From the NCBI GenBank assembly GCA_041662625.1, contig JBAZSB010000001.1, positions 791,710 through 855,709 on the forward strand: a stretch of DNA of 64,000 nucleotides. Reading direction: 5' to 3'. The translations under genes were made by a program, and so were the position numbers. This DNA is from Patescibacteria group bacterium (GTDB taxonomy: Bacteria; Patescibacteriota; Patescibacteriia; Buchananbacterales; UBA6539). The stretch's first letter is position 1, and every line of letters starts with the position of its first letter. Shown piece after piece: positions 7,221 to 64,000 of the stretch. The notes under the pieces are model-generated. The model did no database searches, was not told the DNA's origin, and saw only the letters and a program-made list of their open reading frames with translations.

Positions 7221-7557
7221 CCGTCTTGAGTGAAAACAAGAGATATCATCTTTTATCATGGCTAATTTTGGCCTAATTGTCAACGATGCCTTTTGTCGGG
7301 GGCATATTTTTTTACACTTGACAAAGATTTTTCACTATGATAATTTGAAAATGAGCTTTAGGCTCAACATAGCGCGAAAAGCCCGGATTTTTCCGGGTTT
7401 TCGTTTGTCTAATTTTTAGTATCAATCATTAATTTAAAATCAAAAAGGTAATCAATATGGCGCAAACCAATTTTGGTTGTGCGCTTTTATTATTAAAATT
7501 TTGAATTTTTAAATTCGAATTTTGACTCAATATTATAATATCTTAATTTATAAATGT

Positions 7558-7917
7558 ATGACCAAAACTAATAATAAATTTGACTTGGAGGAAAGAACGG
7601 CAAAATTCGGAGGAGACATTATTGAATTTTGTAAATTACTAACGGAAAACACTATTACTAGACCTCTTATAAGCCAGGTTGTCCGTTCCGGTACTAGTAT
7701 CGGTGCAAATTATATGGAAGCAAACGGTGGTAGTTCAAAAAAAGACTTCAAAAACAAAATTTTCTACTGTAAAAAAGAATGCCAAGAGACAAAACACTGG
7801 TTAAGAATGATAGCTAAGGCTTGTCCAAATAATTTAAAAGATTGCCAAAAACTTTGGCAAGAAGCTCAAGAATTAACTTTAATTTTTGGCAAAATAATTT
7901 CAACTTTAAAATATTAA
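7558..7917 (+). CDS. four-helix-bundle protein (23S rRNA intervening-sequence protein family)
   Basis: 'LEERTAKFGGDIIEFCKLL...SQVVRSGTSIGANYMEANGGSSKKDFKNKIFYCKKECQETKHWL' matches the family signature; ATG at 7558 preferred over TTG at 7522; gene flanked by AT-rich inverted repeats. Confidence 0.85.
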   Translation: MTKTNNKFDLEERTAKFGGDIIEFCKLLTENTITRPLISQVVRSGTSIGANYMEANGGSSKKDFKNKIFYCKKECQETKHWLRMIAKACPNNLKDCQKLWQEAQELTLIFGKIISTLKY

Positions 7918-7970
7918 ATTATTCGAAATTGAATCAAAATTCAAAATTCGAAATTAAAAATTATAAATCT

Positions 7971-9851
7971 ATGAAAAAACTTCTATTTCTTCTCCTCTTA
8001 CTCACCCCTTTACTAGCCACAGCCACTGAACCAACCGTGCTAATTAATGAAATCTGTTGGATGGGCACGGAAATCTCCAGCAATGATGAATGGATTGAGC
8101 TTTATAACCCAACTGAAAATGAAATTGATTTAACCGGCTGGACTTTAGAAGCAACTGACGGCAGTCCAAAAATAAATTTGACCGGGATTATTCCAGCGGC
8201 GGGCTATTTTTTGCTGGAACGGACCGATGACGAAACAGTACCGGCAGTTCCGGCCGACCAAATCTACACTGGAGCACTAAGCAATACCAGCGAATGGCTG
8301 AAACTTTATGATACCCAAAATAATCTCATTGATGAAATTGATGCTAGTTCTGGCTGGCCCACTGGTGATAATGCCACCAAACAAACTCTGGAAAGAACAG
8401 CGAATTATAACTGGCAAACCAGTGCTGCTGGTGGCGGCACGCCCAAGGCCAAAAATAGTACCGCCACTTCTGAAACTGAAGAACCTCCTAGCGACGAGCC
8501 GGAAGTAAAGCCAGAGCCAGAAGAAACATCTTCTTCTCCATCGTCTGTCCCGGAAAGTGGGGCGAAAAAAGGTGACATTATTTTCACTGAAATTTTCCCT
8601 AATCCAATTGGCCCCGATACCGTGGGTGAATTTATTGAGATTAAAAATGTCAGTGTCACTAATATTAATTTGACTGATTGGCAAATTAGAAATGCTGCCA
8701 AACAAATTTTTACCATTCCGGCCTGGACAATGACACCAAAAAGTATACTAGTCTTCTATCGCCCCGAAACTAAGTTGGCATTAAATAATGAAAAAGAACA
8801 AATCAAGCTTTATTCGAAATCCGGCTCAATTATTGATCAGATAGAATATAAAGCCGCACCAGATGGCCAAAGTTACCAACTAAGCGATGGCAAATGGTAC
8901 TGGGCGCAAGCTTCAGGGGGCCAAGAAAATATTTACCAAACTTCAATTATACCAAAAGCAATCATTACCGGACCAAAGGAAGCAAAGGTTGGTGAGATTA
9001 TTACTTTCGATGCCTCTGATTCTTTTGATCCAGAAAATCGCCCGTTAAGTTTTTTTTGGGATTTCGGCGACGGCCGGACTGATACTGGCGTTTTGGCCCG
9101 CCAGATTTATCTAGGGCCAGAAAACTACGAAATAAAACTCAAAGTTTCAGCCGATCAGGCAAGTAGCACGGAAAAATTTAAAATAAAAATTACCGGCGAA
9201 AAAAAGGAAGAACAAAAAGATAACTCCGGGTCGGCAACCACAACCGAAGTAACTACCACCCCAATGACTAGCCTAAAAGACATTCCTTTCATTTTTATTT
9301 CCGAATTTTTACCTAATCCCCAGGGTTCAGACGACCAAGAATTTATCGAAATCTTCAGTAATCACACTCAGCCGGTCAACCTGGCGGGCTGGCAGCTTGA
9401 TGATGCCGAAGGCGGCAATAAGCCTTACCAAATCCCGGAAGGAACAATTATCAAACCCGACCAGTATTTAGCTTTCTATAAAACCGAAACTAAAATTTCT
9501 CTAAATAATAGTAATGATGCCATTCGCCTGCTGGCCCCCGACGGCACTTTAGTTGATTATACTGACTACGAAGAAACCGAAGAGGGAGTAAGTTTTGTCT
9601 TGGATGAAGAGTTCAACTGGCAGCCAAGTCAGACACCAACACCGGGTGAAATCAATGTCTTACAACAACCACCTGAAGCTGAGTCAACCACCGCTAGTAC
9701 CAGCACACCAAAAGTTTTAGGTGCCCAACTAAACCAAGAAGACTTACTGACTGAACCGCCGAAAAACAAAAATAAATATATCTTTGCTGGCATTTCTGCC
9801 GTTGTGGTTTTGGGTTTAGGTACGGTTTTAAAGTTAAAAAAGAAAAATTAA
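7971..9851 (+). CDS. secreted/C-terminally anchored protein with three lamin-tail-domain (LTD) repeats and a PKD domain
   Basis: Signal peptide MKKLLFLLLLLTPLLATA; LTD signatures 'PTVLINEICWMG...EWIELYNPTENEIDLTGW', 'GDIIFTEIFPNPIGPDTVGEFIEIKN', 'ISEFLPNPQGSDDQEFIEIFSN...LAGWQLDD'; PKD 'FWDFGDGRTDTG'; C-terminal TM helix + KKKN. Confidence 0.75.
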   Translation: MKKLLFLLLLLTPLLATATEPTVLINEICWMGTEISSNDEWIELYNPTENEIDLTGWTLEATDGSPKINLTGIIPAAGYFLLERTDDETVPAVPADQIYTGALSNTSEWLKLYDTQNNLIDEIDASSGWPTGDNATKQTLERTANYNWQTSAAGGGTPKAKNSTATSETEEPPSDEPEVKPEPEETSSSPSSVPESGAKKGDIIFTEIFPNPIGPDTVGEFIEIKNVSVTNINLTDWQIRNAAKQIFTIPAWTMTPKSILVFYRPETKLALNNEKEQIKLYSKSGSIIDQIEYKAAPDGQSYQLSDGKWYWAQASGGQENIYQTSIIPKAIITGPKEAKVGEIITFDASDSFDPENRPLSFFWDFGDGRTDTGVLARQIYLGPENYEIKLKVSADQASSTEKFKIKITGEKKEEQKDNSGSATTTEVTTTPMTSLKDIPFIFISEFLPNPQGSDDQEFIEIFSNHTQPVNLAGWQLDDAEGGNKPYQIPEGTIIKPDQYLAFYKTETKISLNNSNDAIRLLAPDGTLVDYTDYEETEEGVSFVLDEEFNWQPSQTPTPGEINVLQQPPEAESTTASTSTPKVLGAQLNQEDLLTEPPKNKNKYIFAGISAVVVLGLGTVLKLKKKN

Positions 9852-9854
9852 AAT

Positions 9855-10412
9855 ATGACGGCTAAATCTAAATTAAAACAACCTAAAACGGCCTCTCTAA
9901 TTCCGGCCGAGACAATTACCCAATCAATTTTGTTTATCCGCGGCCAAAAAGTAATGTTTGATGAAACTTTGGCTCAACTTTACGGCGTTAAAACAAAGGT
10001 TCTAAATCAGGCAGTAAAAAGAAATCGTAGTCGGTTTCCTAAAGATTTTATGTTTCAACTAACAAATGAGGAATTAGAAAATTGGAGGTCACAATTTGTG
10101 ACCTCCAATCCGTCAGCAAAAATGGGGCTGAGACGCAAACCTTATGCCTTTACCGAACAAGGTATTGCTATGCTTTCAAGTGTCTTAAATAGTAAACGTG
10201 CTGTTCAAGTTAACATTGAAATTATGAGAACCTTTGTTCGCCTCCGCCAAATGCTGGCTTCGCACCAACAGCTTGGCCGAAAAATGGAAGCTTTGGAAAA
10301 AAGGTATGATCGGCGGTTCAAAATTATCTTTGATGTCCTTCGCCAGCTAATGAAGCCACCGGAACCAAAACCTAAGCCGATTGGCTTTGAAGATCGCCAA
10401 AAAAGAAAGTAA
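9855..10412 (+). CDS. ORF6N-domain protein (KilA-N-like DNA-binding, phage-associated family)
   Basis: 'IRGQKVMFDETLAQLYGVKTKVLNQAVKRNRSRFPKDFMFQLTNEE' is the ORF6N signature. Confidence 0.8.
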   Translation: MTAKSKLKQPKTASLIPAETITQSILFIRGQKVMFDETLAQLYGVKTKVLNQAVKRNRSRFPKDFMFQLTNEELENWRSQFVTSNPSAKMGLRRKPYAFTEQGIAMLSSVLNSKRAVQVNIEIMRTFVRLRQMLASHQQLGRKMEALEKRYDRRFKIIFDVLRQLMKPPEPKPKPIGFEDRQKRK

Positions 10413-10468
10413 CTTAAAACTATTAACAATAAATAATAGAAAAATGAAAAAACGAATCTAACTAATGA

Positions 10469-10497
10469 TTTGACAAATTATTTGAATAAGGGTAAAT
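10469..10497 (+). promoter_or_regulatory. sigma70-like promoter (TTGACA-17-TAAATA) for GC-rich small ORF
   Basis: Read directly; followed by RBS AAAGGAGA and ATG 10552. Confidence 0.4.
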
Positions 10498-10551
10498 AAA
10501 AAAGGGGGCTTACCAAAACCGCACTTAAAAGTAGCGGGGAAAGGAGACGGT

Positions 10552-10788
10552 ATGACTGAAGACAGGCAACTGCCCAAAGACTTGAGACCGGGCGATATCC
10601 TGGTCTTCGATAGCAACACAGAAACACCGGTTCAGGCGGTGGTTGATCGTGGAGGGCCAGACGTCCAGATAATACTGGCCAGCGGGCCACCAGACCGAAG
10701 GAACAATTCCCTCTTTCCTATCACCATTAGCAAAAATGGGAATGGCGGCTTGCGCTATCCCGCCAACATCACCACGGTGAAGCGGTAA
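10552..10788 (+). CDS. small GC-rich hypothetical protein (78 aa)
   Basis: ORF with GGAGA RBS, GC-rich codons, followed by hairpin terminator at 10811-10845. Confidence 0.35.
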   Translation: MTEDRQLPKDLRPGDILVFDSNTETPVQAVVDRGGPDVQIILASGPPDRRNNSLFPITISKNGNGGLRYPANITTVKR

Positions 10789-10869
10789 TTGTTTGCGGAC
10801 TTATCTTATTGTGGCTCAGCCTCGCCTGAGCCCTTTCTTTTTTAAGACTTACTGATATAATAAATATAT

Positions 10870-11043
10870 ATGCTTTTGCTCAACACAAGCGCCAAAACCG
10901 GCTGGTTTCAGCTGGGAATAATAGTGGTAATGACAATTATTAGCTTTTATTTTATCAAAGAAGCTTTTGCCAAAACCCTGATTGAATGGCAAAATGTAAA
11001 TGAACTCCAGCAGACCGAAATCCAAGGAATGTTAGACCAATAG
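10870..11043 (+). CDS. small hydrophobic peptide (57 aa), hypothetical
   Basis: ORF MLLLNTSAKTGWFQLGIIVVMTIISFYFIKEAF... followed immediately by a strong terminator. Confidence 0.25.
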   Translation: MLLLNTSAKTGWFQLGIIVVMTIISFYFIKEAFAKTLIEWQNVNELQQTEIQGMLDQ

Positions 11044-11046
11044 ATT

Positions 11047-11102
11047 AAAAAATCACCCGGCCAAAATATTGTAGAACCATTTTTTGGCCGGGTGATTTTT
11101 TG
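11047..11102 (+). terminator. rho-independent terminator (18-bp stem AAAATCACCCGGCCAAAA/TTTTGGCCGGGTGATTTT + T-run)
   Basis: Perfect inverted repeat read directly; flanked by A-run and T-run (bidirectional). Confidence 0.8.
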
Positions 11103-11214
11103 TTAGAAACAATAGAATTGACAAGGTTAAGAAGAAGGTGTTAATTTAAAATATCCTGACAAAGAGCAGGATGAAGCAGCTAACCATAGGCTCAAACGGA
11201 GGAGGTCAAGACAT

Positions 11215-12264
11215 ATGGATACATCGGTTTACGCCGCCTTTGCAGACGGCACAAGAGTTGAAGAAAAGGTCCTCAGAGTACTAAAGAGGTTCGCGCCCGA
11301 CGGGCACCTCGACGTCCTGGCCTGCGACCAGGACAACTCGTTCCGCTCGATGTTGAAGAAGTTCCACACCAACTGCCGGGCCGCGGGCGGCAGAACCGAG
11401 GATTATCCGGAAGTTCCGGAGGATTTGCATGTAACCATTCTCAGCCGGCTGCTGGCGAGGACATTGGGCCGCGGCCATCACGCCGCCTTGTTCAACCAGC
11501 TTGGCTTCAAGAAAGGCGGGTTCCGCGAGGACCTGGGCGAGGAAACAATGTTGCTCGGCCGTCTCGAGAACACCAAGTTCGCCGATGGACCGGACGGCGG
11601 GCAAGTTGCCCAACTGGCCATCGAGCCTGAAGAAGCCGACCCGTACGTCGACGGTTTCAAGACGCTGGTCAAGGTCGATCCGGCCAAGCCGGCGAGTTGG
11701 GAGGCCAATCTTGCGTGGCTGCGCGACGTTGACGCGCGGTGCAAGGCACTCGGCAAACCGCTATTTAACGAGACCTTGTACACGCCGCCGGCCGATGTCT
11801 CCAAACTCGTGATGGCCCAGAACTTACCCGGCGCCCTGCTGAAAATCGCCCTCGCCTTCGGTCCCTTTGGCACCTTTTACAAAACCCAGGTGCCACTGGC
11901 ATGGGTCGAAGGCGTCGCGGTCGGCCATTCCGGCGGTATCAGAACCAACATCGGCTTCATGGCTGAGCTCATCAAACGCCCGCTGTTGATCCTATCGGCA
12001 GCAGTCGACTTCGACCAGTACGCGCTGCAATTCGCGTCGATTGCCGATTTGGCCGTCGGGCCGATGTGCGGACGGGCCTATTTCAAAGACCCGTTCAGCG
12101 ACCCGGCCGTGAGCAACTGGGAACTGCTCGAGCACGCCATCGCCGAAATCGCCCTGCCGCGCATGAAACTGATCCGCGGCATGATGCAAAATGTCGGCCG
12201 ACCCTGGTGGGCGGACTTCAAGGAAGTATCGCCGGCGGCGAAAACGCTGCTCGGCCTCAGCTAG
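11215..12264 (+). CDS. class I aldolase of the LacD/DUF2090 family (tagatose-1,6-bisphosphate-aldolase-like), GC-rich
   Basis: 'VLACDQDNSFRSML' resembles LacD 'ALAFDQRGALKRMM'; C-terminal 'GPMCGRAYF' resembles LacD 'GVLCGRATW'; strong RBS GGAGGAGG; high GC3. Confidence 0.5.
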   Translation: MDTSVYAAFADGTRVEEKVLRVLKRFAPDGHLDVLACDQDNSFRSMLKKFHTNCRAAGGRTEDYPEVPEDLHVTILSRLLARTLGRGHHAALFNQLGFKKGGFREDLGEETMLLGRLENTKFADGPDGGQVAQLAIEPEEADPYVDGFKTLVKVDPAKPASWEANLAWLRDVDARCKALGKPLFNETLYTPPADVSKLVMAQNLPGALLKIALAFGPFGTFYKTQVPLAWVEGVAVGHSGGIRTNIGFMAELIKRPLLILSAAVDFDQYALQFASIADLAVGPMCGRAYFKDPFSDPAVSNWELLEHAIAEIALPRMKLIRGMMQNVGRPWWADFKEVSPAAKTLLGLS

Positions 12265-12300
12265 GCCCCAAATCCGAGGAGGGCAGAACAATTACAACAA

Positions 12301-12336
12301 CGCCGCGTCGGCTTTCCGATGCGGCGAATTTTTTTA
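12301..12336 (+). terminator. rho-independent terminator after aldolase-like gene
   Basis: CGCCGCGTCGGCTTTCCGATGCGGCG hairpin + AATTTTTTT. Confidence 0.7.
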
Positions 12337-12378
12337 CTTAACTTATTAACTTGCCAACTTACAAACTTAGCAGCTGAT

Positions 12379-14181
12379 CTATTCCCACTCAATCGTGGCG
12401 GGCGGTTTATTGGTTACATCATATAAAACTAAATCAATGCCGGGAATTTGTAAAATCTTTTTCGCTATTTTATCCAAAACTTTTTTGTTCATTTGGTAAA
12501 AATTAACGGTCATGGCTTCCTGTGATTCCACTGGCCGCAAAATTATAGTTTGACCACCTTTTAAACCAAGCGGCGCTAAAACTACCGGGAACTGCCAGAT
12601 GTCATTATAAATTTTTGCTTTTTTAATTTCCTCATTGACCAAAGCATCAACTCGGCGAAGTAAGTCCAACCGGTCTTTAGTCAAATAAGCTTTTTTTACT
12701 TTTAAATTGCTTAACTTAACTTTGGCCGGCGCCACTAAATAAACCACCCGGTTAATCTCATGGACTTCGTTAGTAATTCTGATTGAAAAATCATGAAGTT
12801 TATTCCAATCAAGCGACCCACTGAGTAAAACCGGCTGCCGGTAAGTCCGATTATCGCCCTGCACCCCGACACTTTTGAGCGGTAAAATTATTGATTTCAA
12901 TTTCTGACCAACAATTCTTTGCAGATTGATTTTTTGATTTTTTGATTTTTTGATTTCTTGACCGCTACTGCAAAGCACCCTGATAAACAACCCCGGCCCG
13001 GGAAATGGATGGCGATTAATTAAACTTGCAGGCAAACCCAGTTTTTTGGCTACTTGCCGGACCTCATCTTTGTATAATTCTGACAGCGGCTCAACTAAAG
13101 CACCCAGCCGCATCAGCTTTAAAATTTCTTTGACGCGATTATGATGGGTTTTGATTTTATCCGCATGCTTGGTGCCGCCGGTTTCAATGGTATCGGGATA
13201 AATTGTGCCTTGGCCCAAAACCCAATCTTTGGGCTTAAGGCCATTTTTTTTCATTACTTCATCTTTTATCTGCAAAAACGTCCGGCCGATGATCTCCCGT
13301 TTTTTTTCCGGGTCAACTACGCCTTTCAAAGCTGCCAAAAACTTGGCTGAAGCATCATATACGTGCAAATTACCAAACCCGGCTTGGGCTAAAGCCGTTT
13401 TAACCTGGGCTGACTCATTCAAACGCATGGAACCAGAATCGATATGTAGGCCAAAAACCCGGTTTTTGCCTAAAATTTTCTCCAGCAAGGCAAAACAAAC
13501 TGTCGAATCAACTCCGCCGGAAACCAATAAAAATACGTTACGTTTGCCAACGACAGCTTTAACTTTTTTTACCATCTGACTAAAATATTTTTCCAGCGAC
13601 CAGTCTTTTTGACAGTGGCAAATCTTAAAAACAAAATTACTTAAGACCAACTGACCGGCTTTGGTATGAGCCACTTCGGGATGAAATTGCAGGCCATAAA
13701 TATTTTTACTGGCGCAAGCCATAGCCGCCACATTACAGTCACTAGTCTTAGCGCAATTGATAAAGCCCGGCGGCAACTGCACAACGCTATCACCATGACT
13801 CATCCAAATCCGGCTTTGCTTGGGCACACCGGCTAAAATTCTGCCATCAACAATTTTTTCCAAATTGGCAAAACCATATTCTTTAACTCTGCCTTTCTGG
13901 ACTTTGCCACCCAAATGCTGGGCAACTAATTGATGACCATAGCATAGACCTAAAATCGGCACCTCTAATTTAAATAGTTGTGGATTATATCTTACCGCGG
14001 TTTGGTCATAAACACTATTTGGCCCCCCAGATAAAATTATTCCCCTTACTCCTTTTAATTCTTGAGTAGAAACTAGCGGCGGAAAAATCTTAGCTAAAAC
14101 GCCCAGCTGTCTGATCCGCCGGGTAATTAAATGAGTGTATTGCGAGCCAAAGTCGATAATGGCGATTTGTGATGGCTTCAT
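12379..14181 (-). CDS. guaA: GMP synthase (glutamine-hydrolysing)
   Basis: N-terminal class-I GATase (LGLCYGHQL, HPEV), PP-loop 'LVSGGVDSTV', conserved GMP-synthase C-terminal dimerisation domain; contains Lys-rich insert encoded by (TTTTTTGAT)n tandem repeat at 12925-12960. Confidence 0.9.
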   Translation of the reverse strand: MKPSQIAIIDFGSQYTHLITRRIRQLGVLAKIFPPLVSTQELKGVRGIILSGGPNSVYDQTAVRYNPQLFKLEVPILGLCYGHQLVAQHLGGKVQKGRVKEYGFANLEKIVDGRILAGVPKQSRIWMSHGDSVVQLPPGFINCAKTSDCNVAAMACASKNIYGLQFHPEVAHTKAGQLVLSNFVFKICHCQKDWSLEKYFSQMVKKVKAVVGKRNVFLLVSGGVDSTVCFALLEKILGKNRVFGLHIDSGSMRLNESAQVKTALAQAGFGNLHVYDASAKFLAALKGVVDPEKKREIIGRTFLQIKDEVMKKNGLKPKDWVLGQGTIYPDTIETGGTKHADKIKTHHNRVKEILKLMRLGALVEPLSELYKDEVRQVAKKLGLPASLINRHPFPGPGLFIRVLCSSGQEIKKSKNQKINLQRIVGQKLKSIILPLKSVGVQGDNRTYRQPVLLSGSLDWNKLHDFSIRITNEVHEINRVVYLVAPAKVKLSNLKVKKAYLTKDRLDLLRRVDALVNEEIKKAKIYNDIWQFPVVLAPLGLKGGQTIILRPVESQEAMTVNFYQMNKKVLDKIAKKILQIPGIDLVLYDVTNKPPATIEWE

Positions 14182-14328
14182 ATTATGAATTGATTATATC
14201 GCAGTTTTAGGTTATTATAAAGTAAATTAGAAGGTAGATTGGTAGAACGGTAGGGCTGTAGAGCCTAATTAGTCAGCTACTTACCTACTGATCTACCAAT
14301 CTACTAACCTACTTACCTAAACTATACT

Positions 14329-15408
14329 ATGCGCGAAGCCCTAACTTTTGACGACGTCTTGCTCGTCCCCCAAAAATCCAATGTTTCACCAGGTAAAGTC
14401 TCAACCCAGACTTTTTTAACTAAAAGAATTAAGTTAGATATTCCAATTTTATCTGCCGCCATGGATACGGTGACCGAAAGCCCAATGGCCATTGCTTTAG
14501 CTAAGGCCGGGGGTTTAGGTATTATTCATAAAAACATGACGGCTCAACAGCAGGCCAGTGAAGTTAAAAAAGTTAAAGCCAAAAAACTGCTGTGCGGCGC
14601 TTCAGTTTCAGTTGGTGACGAAGCAATTGCCCGAGCAAAACTTTTAGCCGCCGCAGGAGTTGACGCCATTGTTATTGATGTGGCTCACGGCCATTACTAT
14701 AAAGTAGCGGAAACTATCAAAGCTTTGAAAAAACTGATTGGCAAAAAAGTTGTCATTATCGGCGGCAATGTTGCCACTGGCCAAGCCACCTCTGACTTAA
14801 TCAAAGCCGGAGTTGATGTGGTTAAAGTCGGCGTCGGTCCAGGTTCAATTTGCACCACCCGAATCATTGCCGGCATTGGCGTGCCCCAGCTGACCGCGGT
14901 CATGGATGCGGTGGCGGCCGCCAGAAAAACCAAAACTCCGATTATTGCTGATGGCGGCATTAAATTCTCTGGTGACCTAGTTAAAGCTTTGGCCGCCGGA
15001 GCCAGTGCGGTGATGCTTGGCGGACTTTTGGCCGGAACTGACGAAGCACCCGGTAAACTGTTAACTGTTAACGGTCAACGGGTAAAAACTTACCGCGGCA
15101 TGGGCTCAATTGATGCCATGCAAAAAGGCAGCAAAGACCGCTATTTGCAAGGCGACAAAAGCGGCAAAGAACTGATTGCCGAAGGCGTGGTCGGCCACGT
15201 GCCTTATAAAGGTTCAGTTGATAACGTGATTAGCCAATTGATCGGCGGGCTGCGGCAGGGCTTAGGCTACTGCGGTTCTAAAGATATTACCGAACTTTGG
15301 AAGAAAGCTGAATTTGTCAAAATTTCACCAGCTGGTCTGAAAGAAAGCCATCCGCACAGTCTGCAGCAAATCAAAGAAGCACCAAATTATAGAAGCGAAT
15401 TTATATAA
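14329..15408 (+). CDS. guaB: IMP dehydrogenase-like enzyme lacking the CBS subdomain
   Basis: Catalytic loop '[14 protein letters not shown]', flap 'GSKDRYLQ...[10 protein letters not shown]' typical of IMPDH and not GMP reductase; no CBS pair; divergent from guaA. Confidence 0.8.
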
Positions 15409-42911: not shown

Positions 42912-42980
42912 TCAACATTACTAAAAAATAAAGACACAATTTTTTAGATTGCGTCTTTATTTATAGTATATCGAAACGTC

Positions 42981-43343
42981 TTAAACAGCACCTGTGGCCG
43001 AAATCAACTGATTGATGACAAAGGTAGCAATAGCGTAGGAAATAAAGATAATAACTAAACCAATAACCCCGGCGCTGATGATTTTCTTGGCCTGACCCAC
43101 TTTTTCTTCATTACCACCTGCAATCATCCAAGTAAAGCCACCATATAAGACAATTAAAATTGCAATAATTCCAAGAAATCCTAATAGAATACTAACAATA
43201 GCCATTACCCCTTCGCGGATATCTTTAGTCCCTAAACCAGTATAAGTACCATATTCAAGACCGGTCTCTAAGGCTAGGGCTGGTAAAGTCGTTAAAGCAA
43301 AAATTGTTCCTAAAACTACAAAAACTATAATCTTTTTCTTCAT
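42981..43343 (-). CDS. VirB2/TrbC-like (T4SS-pilin-family) small secreted membrane protein, paralog 1
   Basis: Signal peptide MKKKIIVFVVLGTIFALTTLPALA, two hydrophobic helices separated by 'GGFTWMIAGGNEEKVGQAKKII'; strong RBS AAGGGGGTG; internal Met start chosen (track ORF starts 63 nt upstream). Confidence 0.55.
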   Translation of the reverse strand: MKKKIIVFVVLGTIFALTTLPALALETGLEYGTYTGLGTKDIREGVMAIVSILLGFLGIIAILIVLYGGFTWMIAGGNEEKVGQAKKIISAGVIGLVIIFISYAIATFVINQLISATGAV

Positions 43344-43465
43344 TTTTTCACCCCCTTCCTGCTTTTTAAAAATAACGAGATAATCCCTCTTCCCAAAGAA
43401 TACCATAAAGAAAATAAAAAAGAAACCCCCACTAAAAGCGAGGGCTCCTTTTCTATTTTAAATTT

Positions 43466-44140
43466 TTATTTTTTACTCAACTGATCTAATATTTCCTTAG
43501 CTTTATCTTTACCCGCTAAACCAAAGGCAATACCACCAGCCAAAGAAAACATCAAAATTAAACCAGTAAAAAGAATTTGGATTAATTCTGTTGCCACTTT
43601 CAACTGAAGCAAGGCTGCCATCAAAGTAAAAACTAAAATGGCCCATCTCGCAACAGAAGCTAAGAAATCTGATGCCTTTAATTTGGCCGCCAGAGATGTT
43701 TCCTTGACCAAGGTATAGATAAAATTACTAACTACAATCCCAACGATCAGAATGACAATAGCAATAATTACATTGGGAATGTACAAAACTACTGCTTGCA
43801 GAAATCCAGAGATTTGGCTTAAGCCTAAAATATCAGCTGCCACCACTAAAACAATGGCATACAAAAACCAAGTAACCAATAGACTTAAAGCTTTACTGAT
43901 TTCAATCTTGAAACCAATTCGTTCCAAAATCTTTTTCAGGCCAGTTGTTTCCGTCACCCGATCGACATAAAGTCTTTTCAGAATTTTGGCGGTAACTCTA
44001 CCTAAAAATTCGGCAATAAATAAACCGGCAATAAAAATTATTACTGCCACTAAAATCTTTGGCACTAAACCAATGATTTCAAGCCAAATTTCGCCGACAG
44101 AAACATCCAAAGCTGACCCAAAATTATTGAAATTGGACAT
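43466..44140 (-). CDS. membrane protein with repeated 'conserved TM helix' (MscS-N-terminal-like) segments, function unknown
   Basis: 224 aa, 4-5 TM helices, short amphipathic linkers; lies between two pilin paralogs. Confidence 0.4.
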   Translation of the reverse strand: MSNFNNFGSALDVSVGEIWLEIIGLVPKILVAVIIFIAGLFIAEFLGRVTAKILKRLYVDRVTETTGLKKILERIGFKIEISKALSLLVTWFLYAIVLVVAADILGLSQISGFLQAVVLYIPNVIIAIVILIVGIVVSNFIYTLVKETSLAAKLKASDFLASVARWAILVFTLMAALLQLKVATELIQILFTGLILMFSLAGGIAFGLAGKDKAKEILDQLSKK

Positions 44141-44197
44141 AAATTAGCATCTCTCCTTGTATTACTTAAGTAAAGTTTAGTCTTGGCTGATAATTCT

Positions 44198-44557
44198 TTA
44201 GACTGCGCCTGTTGCGGTAATCAACTGATTGATGACAAAGGTAGCAATAGCGTAGGAAATAAAGATAATAACTAAACCGATAACCCCGGCGCTGATAATC
44301 TTTTTGGCCTGACCCACTTTTTCTTCATTACCACCTGAAGTCAGCCAAACAAAACCTCCGTAAAGAATAATGATAATAGCAATAATACCTAAAAAGCCTA
44401 ATAAGACATTAACAATTGCCATTATTCCTTCACGGATATCTTTAGTGCCTAAACCAGTATAAGTACCGTATTCAATACCAGTCTCCAAGGCTAAAGCCGG
44501 CAAAACAGTTAGCGTAAAAATTACTGCTAGAGTTGTTAAAGTTGCGATTTTTTTCAT
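44198..44557 (-). CDS. VirB2/TrbC-like pilin-family protein, paralog 2
   Basis: 119 aa; about 95% nucleotide identity to paralog 1 over about 125 nt of the 3' half (44219-44338 vs 42995-43120), same RBS. Confidence 0.6.
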   Translation of the reverse strand: MKKIATLTTLAVIFTLTVLPALALETGIEYGTYTGLGTKDIREGIMAIVNVLLGFLGIIAIIIILYGGFVWLTSGGNEEKVGQAKKIISAGVIGLVIIFISYAIATFVINQLITATGAV

Positions 44558-44728: not shown

Positions 44729-46957
44729 ATGGCCTTTTTTCAACCTTTTACTAAAACAAAAACAAAAATTAAGAAAAGACTTACTCTCAAGCTAAGTATC
44801 GTAATCTTAGCTTTTTTTGTCTTATCTGCCCCAAATACTTGGGCCCGAACGTTTAATCCCCATAATATAATCACTGACCAAGACTTGATTAATAAAGATT
44901 CACTGTCTCAGGCAGCAATTCAGAAATTTTTGGAACGGGAAAACAGCGTTTTAGCCCGTTATAGCCAAGTTATTGATGGCCAAACATTGAAAGCTTCAGC
45001 AATGATTTGGGAAATTGCCCAAAAACATAGCATTAGCCCAAAATTTTTATTAACTACCCTGGAGAAAGAGCAAAGCTTAATTCATAAAGAGCAAGCAACG
45101 GAAAAAGCTTTGGACTGGGCGACTGGTTATGGTTGCTATGGTGGTGGCTGCAAAGAAAAATACCGCGGGTTTTATAATCAAGTTGAGGCTACCGCCGAAA
45201 CGCAACAAATTTATTGGCAGAAAGCCGGTCAGTTTTCCTTTACTAGTGGCCAGACCACTACCACTTTTGATGGCTACAAAGTCACCCCCGCCAATAAAGC
45301 CACAGCAAATTTATATATCTATACTCCCTATGTTGGTTATGCACCGGAATTGGGAGTAACCCAACCCGCTGGCGGCAATAAATTATTTTGGCGAATTTGG
45401 TCCCGCTATTTTACTGAACAAAAATTTCTTGATGGCCAAATCCTTACCCACGATGGTAACTATTGGCTAATTAAAAATAATAAAAAAAATAAATTCGCGT
45501 CAGCAACATTATTTTTAAAAGATTACAAAACAACTGACGCCATCAATGTTTCTTCTGATGATTTGGCTGCTTATCCTGACGGACCAGAAATTATTTTTGC
45601 TGATAACACTTTGGTTAAGTCGACTGATTCAGGTCAAATCTATTTGCTTACGGAAAACCAAAAACGACCAATCATTAATAATTCAGCTTTAGCTTTGCTT
45701 GAAGATTTTCAAATTGCTATTACCGAGAATGAAATTACCACGGTTTCCGAAACTCAAATTGCTGATTACACTTTAGGTACCCTGATTTCTGATTCTGCAA
45801 TTTTTCCTCAAGGAAAATTATTTAAAGATGAAACCGGAAAAATTTGGCAGGTTCAAGACGGATTAAAACATGAGGTTAACCAATCAGTTTGGCAGAATCG
45901 ATTTGATTCCGCAGAACCAGAAACTATTAGTATGAGTGATTTAGAAAAATATCCAACCGGCAGTCCGATCAAATTAAAAGATGGAACCTTTGTAACAATT
46001 GACGGCAAATATTATTTAATCACTGGTGGTGAACGGATGAAAGTTGAAGATTTAGCTATCTTTGACCGGAATTTTGGCCCAAGCAAAAAAACTGGGGCTT
46101 TAACAGTTAATTCTGCCCTTCTAGAAATCCATGGTGCCAGTGATTATATTGATTATGTTGATGATACAATTCAAGATGCTGTTGTTGCTACTCCCACTAA
46201 CACCGTGACTGGAAATTTTGCCGCCACTTTTGATTCAATAAGTCCTGATGGCCTAATTATGGTCAACGGTGCCACTCAATCAGTAACTATTAAATTCAAA
46301 AATAATGGCAGCACTAATTGGCAGGCAGGCGACGTTTGGCTAAAGGTTACGGATAAAGATAAAGAAACCAGCTCTTTTAGCGTGCCAGATAAAGTTAACT
46401 TTACGGAGACTTCAGTTGCCAGCAGCCAATTGGCTAGTTTTACCTTCAATTTGACTGCTCCCTCTGACCAAAGTGGCCTTTTAAACCAGGAATTTAGCCT
46501 ATATTACAACAAAAATGGCACCCCGACTAAAATTACCTCAATTGCCAAATTTATCATCGTCAAAGCCGGACTATCCGCTCAAATTTTAGAACATAATATT
46601 CCTGCGGCTGTTCGTAACACCTGGAAGCCAATCCAAATTACGATGAAAATAAAAAATACCAGCGCTGATACCACTTGGCTGGCCCGCAAAACTGCCTTAG
46701 AGCTTTATAACCAAGATGGCTCCACCAGTTATTTTTATGACCAAAGCGACTGGGTAAGAGAAGAAGTTGCCGCCGTGCCGGTTGGTAAAACTTATATTCA
46801 ACCCGGCGAAACCGGTGAATTTAAATTCACTTTAGATCCGCGCGGCATTAAAAAAGGCACTTACGTTTTGAACTTCAAACTCAAATTATTGGATAAAGAG
46901 AAAGACGTTTATCTAAACGGCGGCTTAGAATGGCATCGCGAGATTCGGGTGGATTAA
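44729..46957 (+). CDS. large secreted protein with four 'G-x-YWLI/YLLT' repeat modules, function unknown
   Basis: Signal/TM 'LKLSIVILAFFVLSAPNTWA'; repeats GNYWLIKNNKK, GQIYLLTENQKRPI, GKIWQVQDGLKHEV, GKYYLITGGERMKV. Confidence 0.5.
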   Translation: MAFFQPFTKTKTKIKKRLTLKLSIVILAFFVLSAPNTWARTFNPHNIITDQDLINKDSLSQAAIQKFLERENSVLARYSQVIDGQTLKASAMIWEIAQKHSISPKFLLTTLEKEQSLIHKEQATEKALDWATGYGCYGGGCKEKYRGFYNQVEATAETQQIYWQKAGQFSFTSGQTTTTFDGYKVTPANKATANLYIYTPYVGYAPELGVTQPAGGNKLFWRIWSRYFTEQKFLDGQILTHDGNYWLIKNNKKNKFASATLFLKDYKTTDAINVSSDDLAAYPDGPEIIFADNTLVKSTDSGQIYLLTENQKRPIINNSALALLEDFQIAITENEITTVSETQIADYTLGTLISDSAIFPQGKLFKDETGKIWQVQDGLKHEVNQSVWQNRFDSAEPETISMSDLEKYPTGSPIKLKDGTFVTIDGKYYLITGGERMKVEDLAIFDRNFGPSKKTGALTVNSALLEIHGASDYIDYVDDTIQDAVVATPTNTVTGNFAATFDSISPDGLIMVNGATQSVTIKFKNNGSTNWQAGDVWLKVTDKDKETSSFSVPDKVNFTETSVASSQLASFTFNLTAPSDQSGLLNQEFSLYYNKNGTPTKITSIAKFIIVKAGLSAQILEHNIPAAVRNTWKPIQITMKIKNTSADTTWLARKTALELYNQDGSTSYFYDQSDWVREEVAAVPVGKTYIQPGETGEFKFTLDPRGIKKGTYVLNFKLKLLDKEKDVYLNGGLEWHREIRVD

Positions 46958-51089: not shown

Positions 51090-51596
51090 TTAGCTATCTT
51101 TTATTAAATTAAAATCAGTTGCTTCCCTCACCCGGTTTAATAAACTGCCAAAAACTTGTTTCAAATCAGCTCCCCTAACCTGCACGGTTTTAGTTGAAAG
51201 TAATGGGCTAAATAAAAACCATTCCTGCTGATAAATTATTGGGTCAATATAAATATCAATTCCCTCAGCAAAACCAAAAGGATAAGCACAGCCGGGTTCA
51301 GCCGCAAAAGATTCTTTTAATTCCTCGGCTGTGGCCAGCCTAATAGTTTTGGCACCAACGACTTCACTTATTCGTTTGAAATTTACTTTGCAGCCCTGAA
51401 TTGTAACATAAACAATAAATTTATCATCAGCTTTTAAAACTAAGCATTTACCTTCAGTGCCGAAAAACCCGGCTTCTTTTTGGACCACTGCCAGGTCCTC
51501 ATAAGTCAAAGCTGACCGATGGCTGAAAAGTTTATAATCAGCCTGGTTACTATCCAAAAGACTAATAATTTTTTGAAATATTTCTTGTGCTTCCAT
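51090..51596 (-). CDS. YbaK/ProX-type aminoacyl-tRNA deacylase (trans-editing domain) protein
   Basis: 168 aa; 'KCLVLKADDKFIVYVTIQGCKVNFKRISEVVGA' resembles YbaK/ProX editing fold. Confidence 0.6.
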   Translation of the reverse strand: MEAQEIFQKIISLLDSNQADYKLFSHRSALTYEDLAVVQKEAGFFGTEGKCLVLKADDKFIVYVTIQGCKVNFKRISEVVGAKTIRLATAEELKESFAAEPGCAYPFGFAEGIDIYIDPIIYQQEWFLFSPLLSTKTVQVRGADLKQVFGSLLNRVREATDFNLIKDS

Positions 51597-51701
51597 TTAA
51601 ATCATTTTAGCTTTAAATTCAGTAAAAAACAATGGTGGATTTTTGCCTACCTGGTCCTTATAGAGTACAATAAACCCATAAGCCATAAGCTCCAAAACTT
51701 T

Positions 51702-53870
51702 ATGAAAAAGAAATTAATTTTAGGGCTAATCGTCCTAGTTATTATCATTGCCAGTGCGGCTTTATTTTTTATTCTGCCCAAGGGAGAGAAAACTACTGAG
51801 GCTGATCAATTTACCGACCCTCGCTATTCTACTGAACCAACCGGTATAAATTTGATTCAAACCGCTTTAGATGAAGGTAAAATTGATTTAGAAACGGCTT
51901 TGATTTACAAAGTAAAATTTTTGTTTAATGATCCGACTTTGCCCAAGGAATATTTAACGGAAAATAAGCCTTTTGAAGATGCCGGCGCTTTTGCTGAAGT
52001 TCAGGAAAACTGGGATAAACTTTCTGCCGAAACTAAAAAAACTTTGGCGCCCTATTTTTTGCGGCCGGACAATCCAGAAAGTTTTATTAGTAAAATGTTA
52101 AACGGCGAAATCCAAACACCGCAAACGGGATTTTTAAAACTGATTGATCAGACCAAGGCTTTTGACCGGCCCCTCTCTTATAAATCCGACGATACTTTGA
52201 ATACTGCTGACGGCAAAATCAAAGTCTGGTATCTGGAAAAAAAAGAAACAGTTAACGGTGAAGAAAAAATCACCAAACTTTATTATGGCCCCGCCCAAAA
52301 AATTGTGGCCAATTTAAATACTGACCAGGCTTATGCCCAATATGTCGGACTTTTGGGAAAAACTCCCCCGTCTGACGGCACTTTGGGCGGGGACGAAAAA
52401 ACTGACATTTTTTTAGGTCCAACCGGTTTTGCCCAACTTGGCTCTTCTTACGGCGTTAACGTTCCAGACAACGGCAACAGCCGAAGCAGCTTCATTATTA
52501 TTCAGGAAAATTTGGATGATAAAAATTTGAAAACCACGACTGTTCATGAACTCTTCCATGCTTTCCAGCGCGCTTTTGACTGCTGGCTTTATAAAGCCAA
52601 CTGGTGGTGGATTGAAGGCACGGCAACCTGGTCGGAAGATTTCATTTATCCAAAAGATAATACCGAGCAAGGTTATGTTGAGAAATTTATTCCCAAATCG
52701 GAATTAAGTTTATTTAAAAATGGCGACAATTTTGAATACGGCGCCTATGTTTTTCCTTTTTATCTTTCAAGAACTTATGACCGAATGGTAATTACTAAAA
52801 TCTTTGAAGGCTGTAAAGGTAATGGTGATCCACTTGTCTCTGCCGAAAAAAATATTGACGGCGGATTCAAAAAAAATTGGAAAGAGTTTACTTTATGGAA
52901 TTATAATAAAAAACCGGCTGAATTCTATAAAAATGGCGACCAAAGTAAAACTTTTACGGCTCATTCTTCAGAATCGGGTGGTAACTCAGACATGCAGTTC
53001 ATCAATGGCATAGGTGAAATGCCTTATCCAACCAAAGAGCTGGCGCCGCTGACCGCTCAGGTAATAAGCTTCAGCGTAGGAGATGATACTAATCAAATCC
53101 GGAAAATAATTTTCAAAAACCTGAAAAATTTCACCGGCAAAACCGATAAAGCGGCAATCAAAGCCGTTGTTTATCCCAAAACCGGTTCGCCTTATACCGA
53201 AGATTGGACCGACAAAGAAAGCCGAAGTTTTTGTTTTGACAAGTCTGATGAAAATATTGATAGAGTAATTTTAATCTTCAGTAATGCCGAAACTAAAAAT
53301 AAGATCGTCGCGATTGAAATCAAAGGTAGGGCTGCTGATACCTGTTTCGAAATTAACCAGGGTGAAACCATGGTTTCTAAACCGGTATTTGGCGTTGATC
53401 CAAACTATACTGGTACCGTCAAATATCAAGCCGAAGGCGAATTAGTGAAAGACTCCGTACCGGCCAAAGCGAAATACGCCTACTTGGGTAAATGGAAAGT
53501 TAAAGTCATTTACCGGGAAGATTGGCCAAGCCAAACTGTTATGTTTATCACTTCAAGTGGAATGTATTTTTCTTATGACCATTATTTGGAATTTGATTTG
53601 AGCGCCGAATCAGTCGAAAAAGACGGCACTTTTGAAGCAATAACCAAAGAAGGTAAATTTGAAACCCCGGGTTGGACTGTTACTAATCAAATTTCCGGCG
53701 AGAGTGTAACTATTCCCGAGAATACCACTCCTTGGGATGTTCCTAAAAAAGGCGTGATTTCGGAAATGACAGAAGACGGCTGTAAAATCAGTTTGCCGGA
53801 TTTTGTCTTGTACAATTCTGGCGGCTACCGCGACTTGCCTCACCCGATTATCTTTGAAATTAAAAAATAG
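51702..53870 (+). CDS. secreted protein with HExxH zinc-metallopeptidase motif
   Basis: Signal/TM 'MKKKLILGLIVLVIIIASAALFFI'; 'TVHELFHAFQRAFD' HExxH; internal Met chosen over upstream track start that overlaps opposite-strand gene. Confidence 0.5.
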   Translation: MKKKLILGLIVLVIIIASAALFFILPKGEKTTEADQFTDPRYSTEPTGINLIQTALDEGKIDLETALIYKVKFLFNDPTLPKEYLTENKPFEDAGAFAEVQENWDKLSAETKKTLAPYFLRPDNPESFISKMLNGEIQTPQTGFLKLIDQTKAFDRPLSYKSDDTLNTADGKIKVWYLEKKETVNGEEKITKLYYGPAQKIVANLNTDQAYAQYVGLLGKTPPSDGTLGGDEKTDIFLGPTGFAQLGSSYGVNVPDNGNSRSSFIIIQENLDDKNLKTTTVHELFHAFQRAFDCWLYKANWWWIEGTATWSEDFIYPKDNTEQGYVEKFIPKSELSLFKNGDNFEYGAYVFPFYLSRTYDRMVITKIFEGCKGNGDPLVSAEKNIDGGFKKNWKEFTLWNYNKKPAEFYKNGDQSKTFTAHSSESGGNSDMQFINGIGEMPYPTKELAPLTAQVISFSVGDDTNQIRKIIFKNLKNFTGKTDKAAIKAVVYPKTGSPYTEDWTDKESRSFCFDKSDENIDRVILIFSNAETKNKIVAIEIKGRAADTCFEINQGETMVSKPVFGVDPNYTGTVKYQAEGELVKDSVPAKAKYAYLGKWKVKVIYREDWPSQTVMFITSSGMYFSYDHYLEFDLSAESVEKDGTFEAITKEGKFETPGWTVTNQISGESVTIPENTTPWDVPKKGVISEMTEDGCKISLPDFVLYNSGGYRDLPHPIIFEIKK

Positions 53871-62412: not shown

Positions 62413-62419
62413 ATAGAGA

Positions 62420-62486
62420 GTAGGTTGTAGTGAGTAGGTAGTAGGCAGTTAATTTATTCTATTGCCACCTACTCACTACAACCTAC
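62420..62486. repeat. 67-nt hairpin with perfect 20-bp stem GTAGGTTGTAGTGAGTAGGT/ACCTACTCACTACAACCTAC built from CCTAC-family repeats
   Basis: Read directly; 27-nt loop; immediately after SBP stop. Confidence 0.85.
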
Positions 62487-62511
62487 AACCTAATCCCTAC
62501 AACTTAACCTT

Positions 62512-63054
62512 ATGCCCAACAAACTAAAAATTATTTTTCTCACAACCTTAGTAACTAGTGTCTTTCTAACTTTGCCTTTACCGCTTCTGGCCGCAGAGAA
62601 CTGCCCACAAACTGCTTGGCTAAAAACCATTGGAATTAAAGAAGGGCGCTTAATCCCCTGCGCCTGCATAACTTCGGAGATAAAAGAGGAAAAAGTTTTA
62701 AGTTGTGGCGTAACGGAGATGTTCCAAACCATTGTGAATTTTACCCAAATCCTTTTGGCCTTAACCGGCTCGGCCGCTCTATTGATGATTATCTATGGCG
62801 GGACCATGATGATTCTGGCTGGCGCTGGCATCACTGGCACAGGCGATAATAAAAAGAATATTAACCTGGGTAAAGATGCCATCCAGGCAGCCATTATTGG
62901 TCTAGCTATCATACTTGGTGCCTGGCTAATTGTTAATACAACAATTGCAGCCTTAACACAAGGAAAAGTTTCCGGACAAAGCTGGCTTTTTGAAGAAGGG
63001 CTGAGGTGGAATGTAGAAAGCAGTACTGGATCCTCAGAGGATTTTACACCTTAA
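62512..63054 (+). CDS. pilin-family-like secreted membrane protein with extra N-terminal Cys-containing domain
   Basis: Signal peptide, 'CPQTAWL...CACITSE...SCG', then two hydrophobic helices around 'GTGDNKKNINLGKDA'. Confidence 0.45.
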   Translation: MPNKLKIIFLTTLVTSVFLTLPLPLLAAENCPQTAWLKTIGIKEGRLIPCACITSEIKEEKVLSCGVTEMFQTIVNFTQILLALTGSAALLMIIYGGTMMILAGAGITGTGDNKKNINLGKDAIQAAIIGLAIILGAWLIVNTTIAALTQGKVSGQSWLFEEGLRWNVESSTGSSEDFTP

Positions 63055-63204
63055 AATAATTTTACAAAATGACTAGCTATGGCCTTTTCAGATTGACATT
63101 TCTGGATATTATTTATTATAATAAAAGCAGATGTTTAAAAAATAAAGCTATCAGACCCAAAACAATTTGATAATTGATAGCTATAAAAGAAAGGGGGTGG
63201 AAAA

Positions 63205-63564
63205 ATGAAAAAAATCGCAACTTTAACAACGTTAGGGGTAATTTTTGCCCTAACTGTTCTACCGGCCTTAGCTTTAGAAACCGGCCTAAATTACGGTACT
63301 TACACCGGTTTAGGCACTAAAGATATTCGCGAAGGTATCATGAATGTGGTTAACGTCTTATTAGGCTTTTTAGGTATTTTAGCGATTGTTATCATCCTCT
63401 GGGGTGGTTTCCGCTGGCTTACTTCTGGCGGCAATGAAGAAAAAGTGGGTGAAGCCAAAAAGATTATTACCGCTGGTATCATTGGTTTAGTCATTATCTT
63501 CACTGCTTACGCCATTGCTACCTTTGTCATTAATCAGTTAATTACCGCCACCGGCGCTGTCTAA
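63205..63564 (+). CDS. VirB2/TrbC-like pilin-family protein, paralog 3
   Basis: Protein about 85% identical to paralog 2 (same length, identical C-terminus VINQLITATGAV) but different codons; RBS AAGGGGGTG. Confidence 0.6.
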   Translation: MKKIATLTTLGVIFALTVLPALALETGLNYGTYTGLGTKDIREGIMNVVNVLLGFLGILAIVIILWGGFRWLTSGGNEEKVGEAKKIITAGIIGLVIIFTAYAIATFVINQLITATGAV

Positions 63565-63671
63565 ATCTGAACTGCTAATCTCAAATAACTACGGGGAGAC
63601 CCTTCTAGTTGTAAGCTGCTTTTTGGGGGCTGGCAACTGGATGGGTCTCCCCATCTACCAAATTTAAAAAA

Positions 63672-64000
63672 ATGAAAGTGACTAAGAAAAAAATAGTTTT
63701 TGTGCTTTTAACAATTGGTTTTCTAACGATTTTATTATCACCTCAAATAATTTTAGCTGCCGACTGTACTAGTGCTGACTGTGCTCTTAAAGGTTTAGAT
63801 GTCACTGCCACTAATGCGGGTTTTGGTGCCGGAGAAAAGCGTGACATCCCAACCATTATCGGTGAAGCAATTAATTATGTTTTTGGCATTGTCGGGGTGA
63901 TTTTTTTAACCATTATTTTAGTTGGCGGCTACCTTTGGATGACCGCGGGTGGCAGTGAAGAGAAAGTGGGTAAGGCTAAAAGCTTTATCGTTAATGGCAT
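63672..64000 (+). CDS. pilin-family-like protein, paralog 4 (partial, runs off window)
   Basis: Signal peptide, 'GGYLWMTAGGSEEKVGKAKSFI' matching the family's inter-helix motif. Confidence 0.45.
   Translation, partial: MKVTKKKIVFVLLTIGFLTILLSPQIILAADCTSADCALKGLDVTATNAGFGAGEKRDIPTIIGEAINYVFGIVGVIFLTIILVGGYLWMTAGGSEEKVGKAKSFIVNG

Follow-up and report, generated by a model that had tools for sequence, protein, structure and literature searches.

Why should a bacterium keep two copies of a small pilin-like gene whose 3' halves are almost identical and whose 5' ends have drifted far apart? The question is raised by a stretch of 64,000 nucleotides (nt) from a genome of the Patescibacteria (contig JBAZSB010000001.1, positions 791,710–855,709), which at its full length is called the window here. 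On its minus strand pilA (42981–43343), encoding a VirB2-like pilin of 120 residues, and pilB (44198–44557), encoding one of 119 residues, lie on either side of a gene for a multi-transmembrane protein of 224 residues (43466–44140, minus strand), and a third close paralogue, pilC (63205–63564, plus strand; 119 residues, 87% amino acid identity to pilB), is found near the right end as the second gene of a tandem array. An earlier, sequence-only reading of this DNA had described pilA and pilB as separated by the 224-residue protein, which is the case, and its positions for all named pilin genes and for the multi-transmembrane gene agree exactly with the list of open reading frames (ORFs). The answer developed here is that gene conversion, i.e., non-reciprocal recombination, made pilA and pilB alike over about 120 nt after the split from a sister species. 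The genes themselves probably encode VirB2-type pilins, subunits of a filament or conduit that would be assembled by a type IV secretion system (T4SS).

Gene conversion between pilA and pilB

Over their full length pilA and pilB are 81% identical at the nucleotide level, an identity that falls to 60% over the first 60 nt, the signal-peptide region, and rises to 96.6% between nt 221 and 339 of the gene, where 4 of 119 positions differ and the longest identical run measures 60 nt. This tract, which encodes a loop and the second helix of the protein, occupies 43002–43120 in pilA and 44219–44337 in pilB, both on the minus strand. The identity of about 95% over some 125 nt of the 3' halves noted earlier thus stands up to measurement, as does the divergence of the 5' halves and of the third paralogue, pilC carrying many synonymous differences from both genes within the tract.

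Does this block result from recombination? Related loci for comparison were taken from metagenome-derived assemblies (L003–L007, L014, L016, L018, L024 and L030), of which L003 represents the sister species. A quartet maximum chi-square test with permutation p value on the two window genes and their two counterparts in the sister species (window-A, window-B, L003-A, L003-B) revealed opposite groupings on either side of a breakpoint. On the 5' side of alignment column ~230, 27 sites group the orthologues and 4 the paralogues, and on the 3' side 1 site groups the orthologues and 13 the paralogues within a genome (p = 2e-4), bearing out gene conversion. The breakpoint at 43117–43123 in pilA and 44334–44340 in pilB coincides with the positions at which it had been predicted, 43120 and 44338. 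Within the tract, synonymous divergence (dS) between the paralogues is 0.33 in the window and 0.28 in L003, as against 0.91 and 0.67 between orthologues, and upstream of the tract divergence between paralogues equals or exceeds that between orthologues. Counted as sites, orthologues differ at 15–19 of 115 tract positions, mostly synonymously, and paralogues of the same genome at 4–6. Since polarisation with outgroups assigns most of the shared tract states as derived in the window lineage, at least one conversion would have occurred there after the species split, albeit this polarisation is rough because saturation is nearly reached at synonymous positions. Concerted evolution by gene conversion recurs in the clade with a longer tract, as in a third genome (L014) the two genes of a tandem pilin pair are 60% identical over the first 75 nt and 96–99% identical over nt 75–300.

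Could the block have arisen without recombination, by constraint on the nucleotide sequence such as codon bias or an RNA element, or as an artefact of assembling a repeat? The tract does encode a very conserved peptide, and a short-read contig of the same organism in the European Nucleotide Archive (ENA; k141_655222, L002) ends at window position 43341, right at the start codon of pilA, which could be taken as a sign of trouble in assembly. Constraint would, however, hold orthologues alike as well, and it is the orthologues that differ most within the tract; the sharp breakpoint and the same pattern in L014 likewise speak for recombination. Collapse of a repeat is unlikely because the 4 differences inside the tract persist, the longest identical run does not exceed 60 nt, and the sister locus, assembled twice independently (L003 and L018), reads the same at 1,715 of 1,715 nt. 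With so short an identical run, the contig end at 43341 may rather reflect strain-level variation at pilA than repeat collapse. An origin of the identity block other than recombination therefore appears hardly credible.

Does conversion diversify the pilins or keep them alike? The sequence-only reading had likened the pattern to cassette exchange in pilin antigenic variation. The copies would then be exchangeable cassettes whose variable segments are shuffled into an expression locus for antigenic or host-range variation, as in pilE/pilS of Neisseria or among the multiple VirB2 paralogues of Anaplasma and Bartonella. Besides the demonstrated conversion tract, the mosaic character of the paralogues could be adduced for this view, pilB being similar to pilC up to nt ~70 and to pilA from there on, as could the true divergence of the remaining array members, which are only 16–46% identical among themselves, and a role of Patescibacteria pilin arrays in host adaptation on which a recent survey speculates (Quinonero-Coronel et al., 2025, PMC12102498). 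Yet no part of the family is more conserved than the GGNEEKVGQAKK loop with the second helix, for which the converted segment codes, and exchange of this segment makes the copies alike. Both genes are under strong purifying selection, with ratios of nonsynonymous to synonymous divergence (dN/dS) between species of 0.085 for pilA and 0.04 for pilB, and the mature proteins differ from each other at only 11 positions, mostly by conservative replacements. The pilin type represented by pilA, pilB and pilC is highly conserved between species, the 119-residue form being 73–95% identical across well over 100 metagenome-derived relatives. Moreover, pilA and pilB are complete ORFs, each with its own ribosome-binding site (RBS), and terminators end pilA and the operon that pilB forms with the gene of the 224-residue protein; no silent cassette of the pilE/pilS type is present among the copies at this locus. 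Because the converted helix is conserved, selection is purifying and each copy has its own RBS, conversion is seen to homogenise the copies, i.e., to cause their concerted evolution, and not to diversify them. The pattern argues against antigenic variation for copies of the pilA/pilB/pilC type, and we consider such variation very unlikely. As to the mosaic itself, a three-sequence test for conversion between pilB and pilC gave p = 4e-4, but faster divergence of the signal-peptide region of pilA explains the result equally well, and an exchange between these two genes is not claimed.

The pilin family, the pilB operon and the tandem array

What kind of protein is kept alike? The profile searches that had been proposed as a check, with the TrbC/VirB2 family and a T4SS pilin model, place the proteins in the VirB2/TrbC pilin superfamily, the latter model for all four complete genes and the former for pilC only. 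PF18895 (T4SS_pilin, gathering threshold 26.6 bits) is exceeded by pilA (32.0 bits), pilB (37.5 bits), pilC (48.7 bits) and the 180-residue product of the first array gene (28.6 bits). PF04956 (TrbC/VirB2, 27.9 bits) is passed by pilC (29.9 bits), pilA remains below it (23.9 bits), and pilB and the 180-residue protein have no match. Scores of 34.1, 38.9 and 39.1 bits with the NCBIfam model NF045849 (Mbov_0395 family pilin-like conjugal transfer protein) lie below the cut-off of 40 bits. The common architecture described earlier, a signal peptide, a helix, a YGGFxW..GGNEEKVGxAKK loop and a second helix, is found in pilA, pilB, pilC and the array gene starting at 63672; the 180-residue protein, counted among its bearers before, has a degenerate loop only. 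The N-terminus consists of MKK and a hydrophobic stretch with a predicted cleavage site between ALA and LETG, leaving about 95 mature residues. An AlphaFold2 model of pilB (mean predicted local distance difference test score 78.5, ~78–92 over residues 41–110) contains helices at residues 2–31, corresponding to the signal peptide, 37–73 and 78–115, the latter two connected by a turn of four residues. A cleavable signal peptide ahead of a two-helix hydrophobic hairpin with a short charged loop is the VirB2-type architecture, and the pilins are thus predicted to be Sec-exported, two-helix hairpins of the VirB2/TrbC-related family PF18895.

How are these genes arranged and expressed? In pilA an ATG at 43406 would allow a product of 141 residues, which is unlikely as this codon lacks a Shine-Dalgarno sequence and lies in the T-run belonging to the preceding terminator; preference is given to the ATG at 43343, with a GGAAGGGGGTG RBS 6 nt upstream, and the orthologues have 119 residues. 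A hairpin followed by a T-run, resembling an intrinsic terminator by sequence and fold, lies 3' of pilA (42923–42958, minus strand) and has an equivalent after the L003 orthologue, and a second terminator-like hairpin, identified by sequence, ends the operon of pilB, its first gene, and the 224-residue protein (43413–43457, minus strand). The 224-residue protein contains two repeats of PF05552, the conserved transmembrane helix of MscS (E 8.5e-16), and profile searches with Pfam and NCBIfam found no MscS beta-domain or channel domain in it. This msc-like gene directly follows the pilin gene or genes in L003–L007, L014 and L016 and so is a conserved operon partner of the pilin. Its homologues in loci of Deferrimicrobiaceae and Limnocylindria (30% identical) have no pilin neighbour, which makes the pairing specific to this clade of the Candidate Phyla Radiation (CPR). 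Four Buchananbacteria-like genomes (L004–L007) have a single pilin gene ahead of the msc-like gene and no pilA; the arrangement with the msc-like gene between two pilin genes is found in the window and the sister species (L003, with L018 as an independent assembly of the same locus), and in L014 two pilin genes precede the msc-like gene. Hence pilA is a lineage-specific extra copy, a duplicate that is monocistronic and placed after the msc-like gene. The pilB protein is 100% identical to WC675_04150, encoded in a Patescibacteria metagenome-assembled genome on a contig of 922,082 bp, and its nearest named relatives belong to Candidatus Buchananbacteria (75–81% identity). Divergently transcribed from pilB is the gene of a 742-residue exported protein (44729–46957, plus strand) with weak matches to EccB of type VII secretion systems and to immunoglobulin (Ig)-like domains; a counterpart of 738–754 residues occupies the same position in L003–L007, L014 and L016. 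To judge from this conserved position the protein may have a function linked to that of the pilin-msc operon, or it may stand outside the pilin system.

At the right end of the window the pilin genes are more numerous than the four or five copies originally counted in all. Ten tandem PF18895 genes start at 62512, and with the two genes at the msc-like locus at least 12 copies exist. The first array gene (62512–63054, plus strand) encodes the 180-residue protein, which has a Cys-rich N-terminal insert and a C-terminal tail, the second is pilC, and the third (63672–64000, plus strand) is cut by the end of the window and encodes 137 residues in full. The seven genes beyond it (L001, 10468–13874) were read from a second, independent assembly of this organism in the ENA, which covers 10 kb past the right end; the tenth pilin gene is followed by a gene for a DUF2079 membrane protein, and glycosyltransferase genes also adjoin the array. 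Within this set pilA, pilB and pilC stand out as 76–87% identical to one another. A long imperfect inverted repeat devoid of a T-run (GTAGGTTGTAGTGAGTAGGT...ACCTACTCACTACAACCTAC, 62416–62495) lies between a SBP_bac_1 gene and the first array pilin. In L016, a contig of 201 kb, the pilin-msc locus and an array of 11 pilin genes (together 1085–15074) are only ~7 kb apart, as compared to 18 kb in the window, which suggests that the two loci were once one region.

Expression signals set the same three genes apart. It had been stated that all copies keep a strong RBS, which is correct for the copies of 119 or 120 residues: a GGGGGTG RBS precedes pilA, pilB and pilC and is missing from the genes at 62512 and 63672, the former having no recognisable Shine-Dalgarno sequence at all. 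In addition, pilC is preceded by a consensus sigma-70 promoter (63093–63122, plus strand; TTGACA, 18 nt, TATAAT; 12 of 12 matches), and its stop codon is directly followed by a very stable, GC-rich stem-loop (GGGGAGAC...GTCTCCCC; 63593–63652, plus strand, GGGGAGACCC...GGGTCTCCCC; -46.1 kcal/mol, z -7.8) that lacks a T-run. In L016, L024 and L030 the promoter match is retained at 11–12 of 12 positions ahead of the genes orthologous to pilC, which are also followed by a similar hairpin, so that promoter, GGGGGTG Shine-Dalgarno sequence and stem-loop all three recur in three other genomes. Promoter and stem-loop may set the expression of pilC above that of the downstream array genes, and these signals, read from the DNA, suggest that the 119-residue type is the abundant product; the high expression stated earlier for all copies is thus a prediction from sequence signals.

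Secretion machinery and possible role

How could such pilins act? We regard it as probable that they are VirB2-type pilins from which a T4SS builds a filament or conduit. The pilins would be exported by the Sec pathway, cleaved after ALA and inserted into the membrane as a hairpin, as is known for the family, and would be extracted and polymerised by a VirB4-type machine encoded elsewhere in the genome, presumably the chromosomal MPF-FATA-like T4SS that about 80% of Patescibacteria carry. In such a surface filament or conduit of the VirB2 type, the major, abundant subunit would come from pilA, pilB and pilC, and the divergent array members would act as minor or variant subunits. By keeping the subunit-packing helix identical, conversion could allow products of different loci to co-assemble. 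To go by Southlakia epibionticum, whose pilin array is essential, the filament might then be used to contact a host cell or for uptake from it.

Several points weigh against this reading. VirB4, VirD4 and VirB6 were not found in the 64-kb window, for which 27 ORFs including all long ones were scanned against Pfam and precomputed Pfam annotation was used between 44 and 64 kb, nor in the precomputed annotation up to 10 kb past its right end; the absence of VirB4 and VirD4 from the window reported before was thus upheld by direct scans as well as by annotation. Likewise, among 80 metagenome loci around related pilins no VirB4-type Pfam match was obtained, the ORFs of at least 450 residues with a Walker A motif turning out to encode FtsH and other proteins unrelated to T4SSs. 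A pilin gene linked to virB4 or another machinery gene, the hallmark of a T4SS locus, is accordingly seen neither in the window and the adjoining 10 kb nor at the 80 loci. A Foldseek search of the PDB with the AlphaFold2 model returned no match at E <= 0.001, the best being ATP synthase subunit c at E ~1, and a profile search of PDB sequences yielded chance matches only (E > 0.3) and no solved relative. As the hairpin is too simple a fold and no solved pilin was recovered, the fold evidence is compatible with the pilin call rather than discriminating. To these add the roughness of the outgroup polarisation mentioned above, the giant Ig-repeat proteins discussed below, whose N-terminal domain of the same family fits a plain membrane anchor equally well, and the fact that we know of no pilus ever seen for this pilin family.

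Alternatively, the PF18895 hairpin could be a general two-helix membrane anchor or small envelope protein of CPR bacteria that acts independently of any T4SS, for instance together with the protein carrying the MscS-type helices. The missing T4SS genes in the window and at the 80 related loci would be expected in this case, as would a fold search that yields a generic transmembrane hairpin. In all cases the partner gene encodes a small membrane protein that carries MscS-type helices, and envelope-related genes are found in the neighbourhood (Wzy_C in the window, DUF2079 and glycosyltransferases at the array, Polysacc_synt in the syntenic relative L014). Furthermore, the same domain forms the N-terminus of very large surface proteins: an exhaustive HMMER search gave 34,696 cluster representatives, among which many are 1,000–6,860 residues long with an N-terminal pilin domain, which is 55–66% identical to pilB among the library matches (P0133, P0156, P0185 and others). 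In three examples of 2,259–3,264 residues (L041, 9839–17542; L049, 9842–19636; L055, 4465–11244) the N-terminal ~120 residues belong to PF18895 and are followed by Ig-like Big_5, Big_7 and TIG domains, in L041 also by LVIVD repeats; these giant proteins look like surface proteins or adhesins anchored by a pilin domain. The significant profile similarity to TrbC/VirB2 and to the pilin-like conjugal transfer protein of mycoplasma integrative and conjugative elements (ICEs) speaks against a general anchor, which also leaves unexplained 12 stand-alone paralogues and the strong promoter, RBS and hairpin of one of them. Moreover, in the survey such genes adjoin virB4 in 1,135 Patescibacteria assemblies (PMC12102498), and S. 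epibionticum can dispense with neither the array nor the T4SS (Wang et al., 2023, as cited in PMC12857230). We therefore consider a plain membrane anchor rather unlikely, and a filament or conduit built by a T4SS remains the preferred reading. Among the search results, other proteins contain pilin domains in series (P0121, 552 residues with 6 matched stretches; P0127, 820 residues with 8; P0229, 1,775 residues with 15), which are either true poly-pilins or array genes that gene calling has joined, for example where stop codons were missed or the genetic code differs.

It could also be imagined, as a tentative extension with a low probability, that the giant proteins and the pilins belong together in a modular T4SS filament whose genes are unlinked from virB4. 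The trio of the 119-residue type would provide the major subunit, some nine array genes the minor or variant subunits and the giant Ig-repeat proteins inserted adhesins, and conversion would enable co-polymerisation. To our knowledge, an organisation into major pilin, minor pilins and pilin-anchored adhesin is known for type IV and chaperone-usher pili and not for T4SS pili.

A large part of bacterial diversity is accounted for by Patescibacteria, and the T4SS and a pilin array are both essential in the only species tested. A pilin type that conversion keeps in two to three almost identical copies with strong expression signals is likely the bulk subunit and offers a target for antibodies, proteomics and cryo-electron tomography. 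In this clade, in addition, to judge from the window with the adjoining 10 kb and from the 80 related loci, the pilin genes lie far from any T4SS machinery, and their neighbour encodes a small membrane protein that is conserved.

The other genes of the window serve housekeeping and envelope functions (GMP synthase, IMPDH, an ATP synthase subunit, RuvB, Wzy_C and DUF3160). Two long ORFs, of 561 residues (5381–7066, minus strand) and 783 residues (51519–53870, plus strand), have N-terminal transmembrane segments and match no Pfam family, and their products are, by these features, putative uncharacterised envelope proteins; a Walker A motif is found neither in them nor in the likewise Pfam-negative 742- and 313-residue ORFs of the window. 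A 669-residue protein with three lamin-tail domains and PKD domains (7842–9851, plus strand) is followed by an ORF6N-domain protein (9855–10412, plus strand), a domain typically associated with phages or mobile elements.

Comparison with known systems

How do these genes compare with pilins known from elsewhere? The VirB2/TrbC/TraA pilins of Gram-negative T4SSs (PF04956) share with them a signal peptide, two hydrophobic helices, a short basic loop and a mature length of ~70–100 residues. Among the proteins described here only pilC passes the gathering score of that family, pilA falling below it and pilB having no match; they differ further in their monoderm host, in the absence of an adjacent virB operon and in that no solved pilin is recovered by sequence or fold. 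Cyclisation or C-terminal processing and co-assembly with lipid are features of T- and F-pili. The best NCBIfam match is the Mbov_0395 family of mycoplasma ICE proteins (NF045849), of which model positions 7–79 of 80 are aligned; with 34–39 bits against a cut-off of 40 the pilins are not members of that family, and there is no ICE context at the locus.

With respect to their evolution, the closest likeness is to tufA and tufB of Salmonella, duplicated genes that evolve in concert by gene conversion. As there, two functional, expressed-looking copies are kept alike and paralogues within a genome are closer than orthologues; in contrast, only a sub-genic tract of ~120 nt is homogenised here and the signal-peptide region diverges. 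Neisseria pilE/pilS concerns a type IV pilin with exposed regions that are hypervariable and with silent cassettes that lack promoters. Both cases have in common that pilin paralogues undergo gene conversion, whereas the protein families are unrelated, every copy here is a full gene that looks expressed, and it is the conserved core that is converted.

The nearest known systems are the VirB2 arrays of Patescibacteria themselves, which belong to the same phylum and are defined by the same families, PF18895 and PF04956, with which 3,035 assemblies were surveyed (Quinonero-Coronel et al., 2025, PMC12102498). According to that survey, VirB4 is present in 2,417 of the 3,035 assemblies, among them most of the listed Candidatus Buchananbacteria assemblies (its Table S1), and VirB2-like pilins occur in 1,948 of the VirB4-positive ones, adjoining virB4 in 1,135 of these. 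The function of Patescibacteria T4SSs has been termed 'completely unknown' (PMC11665869), and a 2025 review raises the possibility that no other T4SSs of monoderms can build pili (PMC12857230). An array is defined in the survey as 2–11 VirB2-like genes in tandem or with one non-pilin gene between them, a description that covers both pilB-msc-pilA and the ten-gene array of the window; the array shown to be essential in S. epibionticum has six genes (Wang et al., 2023, cited in PMC12857230). Low identity within arrays is common to both (16–46% here; mean 25%, maximum 54% in the survey), and arrays that do not adjoin virB4, as here, account for ~40% of assemblies there (PMC12102498). Differences concern the trio of pilA, pilB and pilC, which at 76–87% identity exceeds the within-array maximum of 54% given there, and concerted evolution by gene conversion, which is shown here and is not among the findings reported in the consulted passages of the survey. 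They also concern taxonomy, the arrays published there being most abundant in Microgenomatia and Saccharimonadia and the genome studied here being Buchananbacteria-like, of class ABY1. VirB2-like pilin arrays in Patescibacteria were thus already described between 2023 and 2025, and the locus is another member of that class. To this class it adds a trio of pilins more alike than the published within-array maximum, a sub-genic conversion tract, a conserved pilin-msc operon with a conserved exported neighbour of ~740 residues, and a clade in which no linkage of the pilins to a T4SS was found in the window, the adjoining 10 kb and the 80 related loci, and it thereby refines the current picture of Patescibacteria pilins without changing it.

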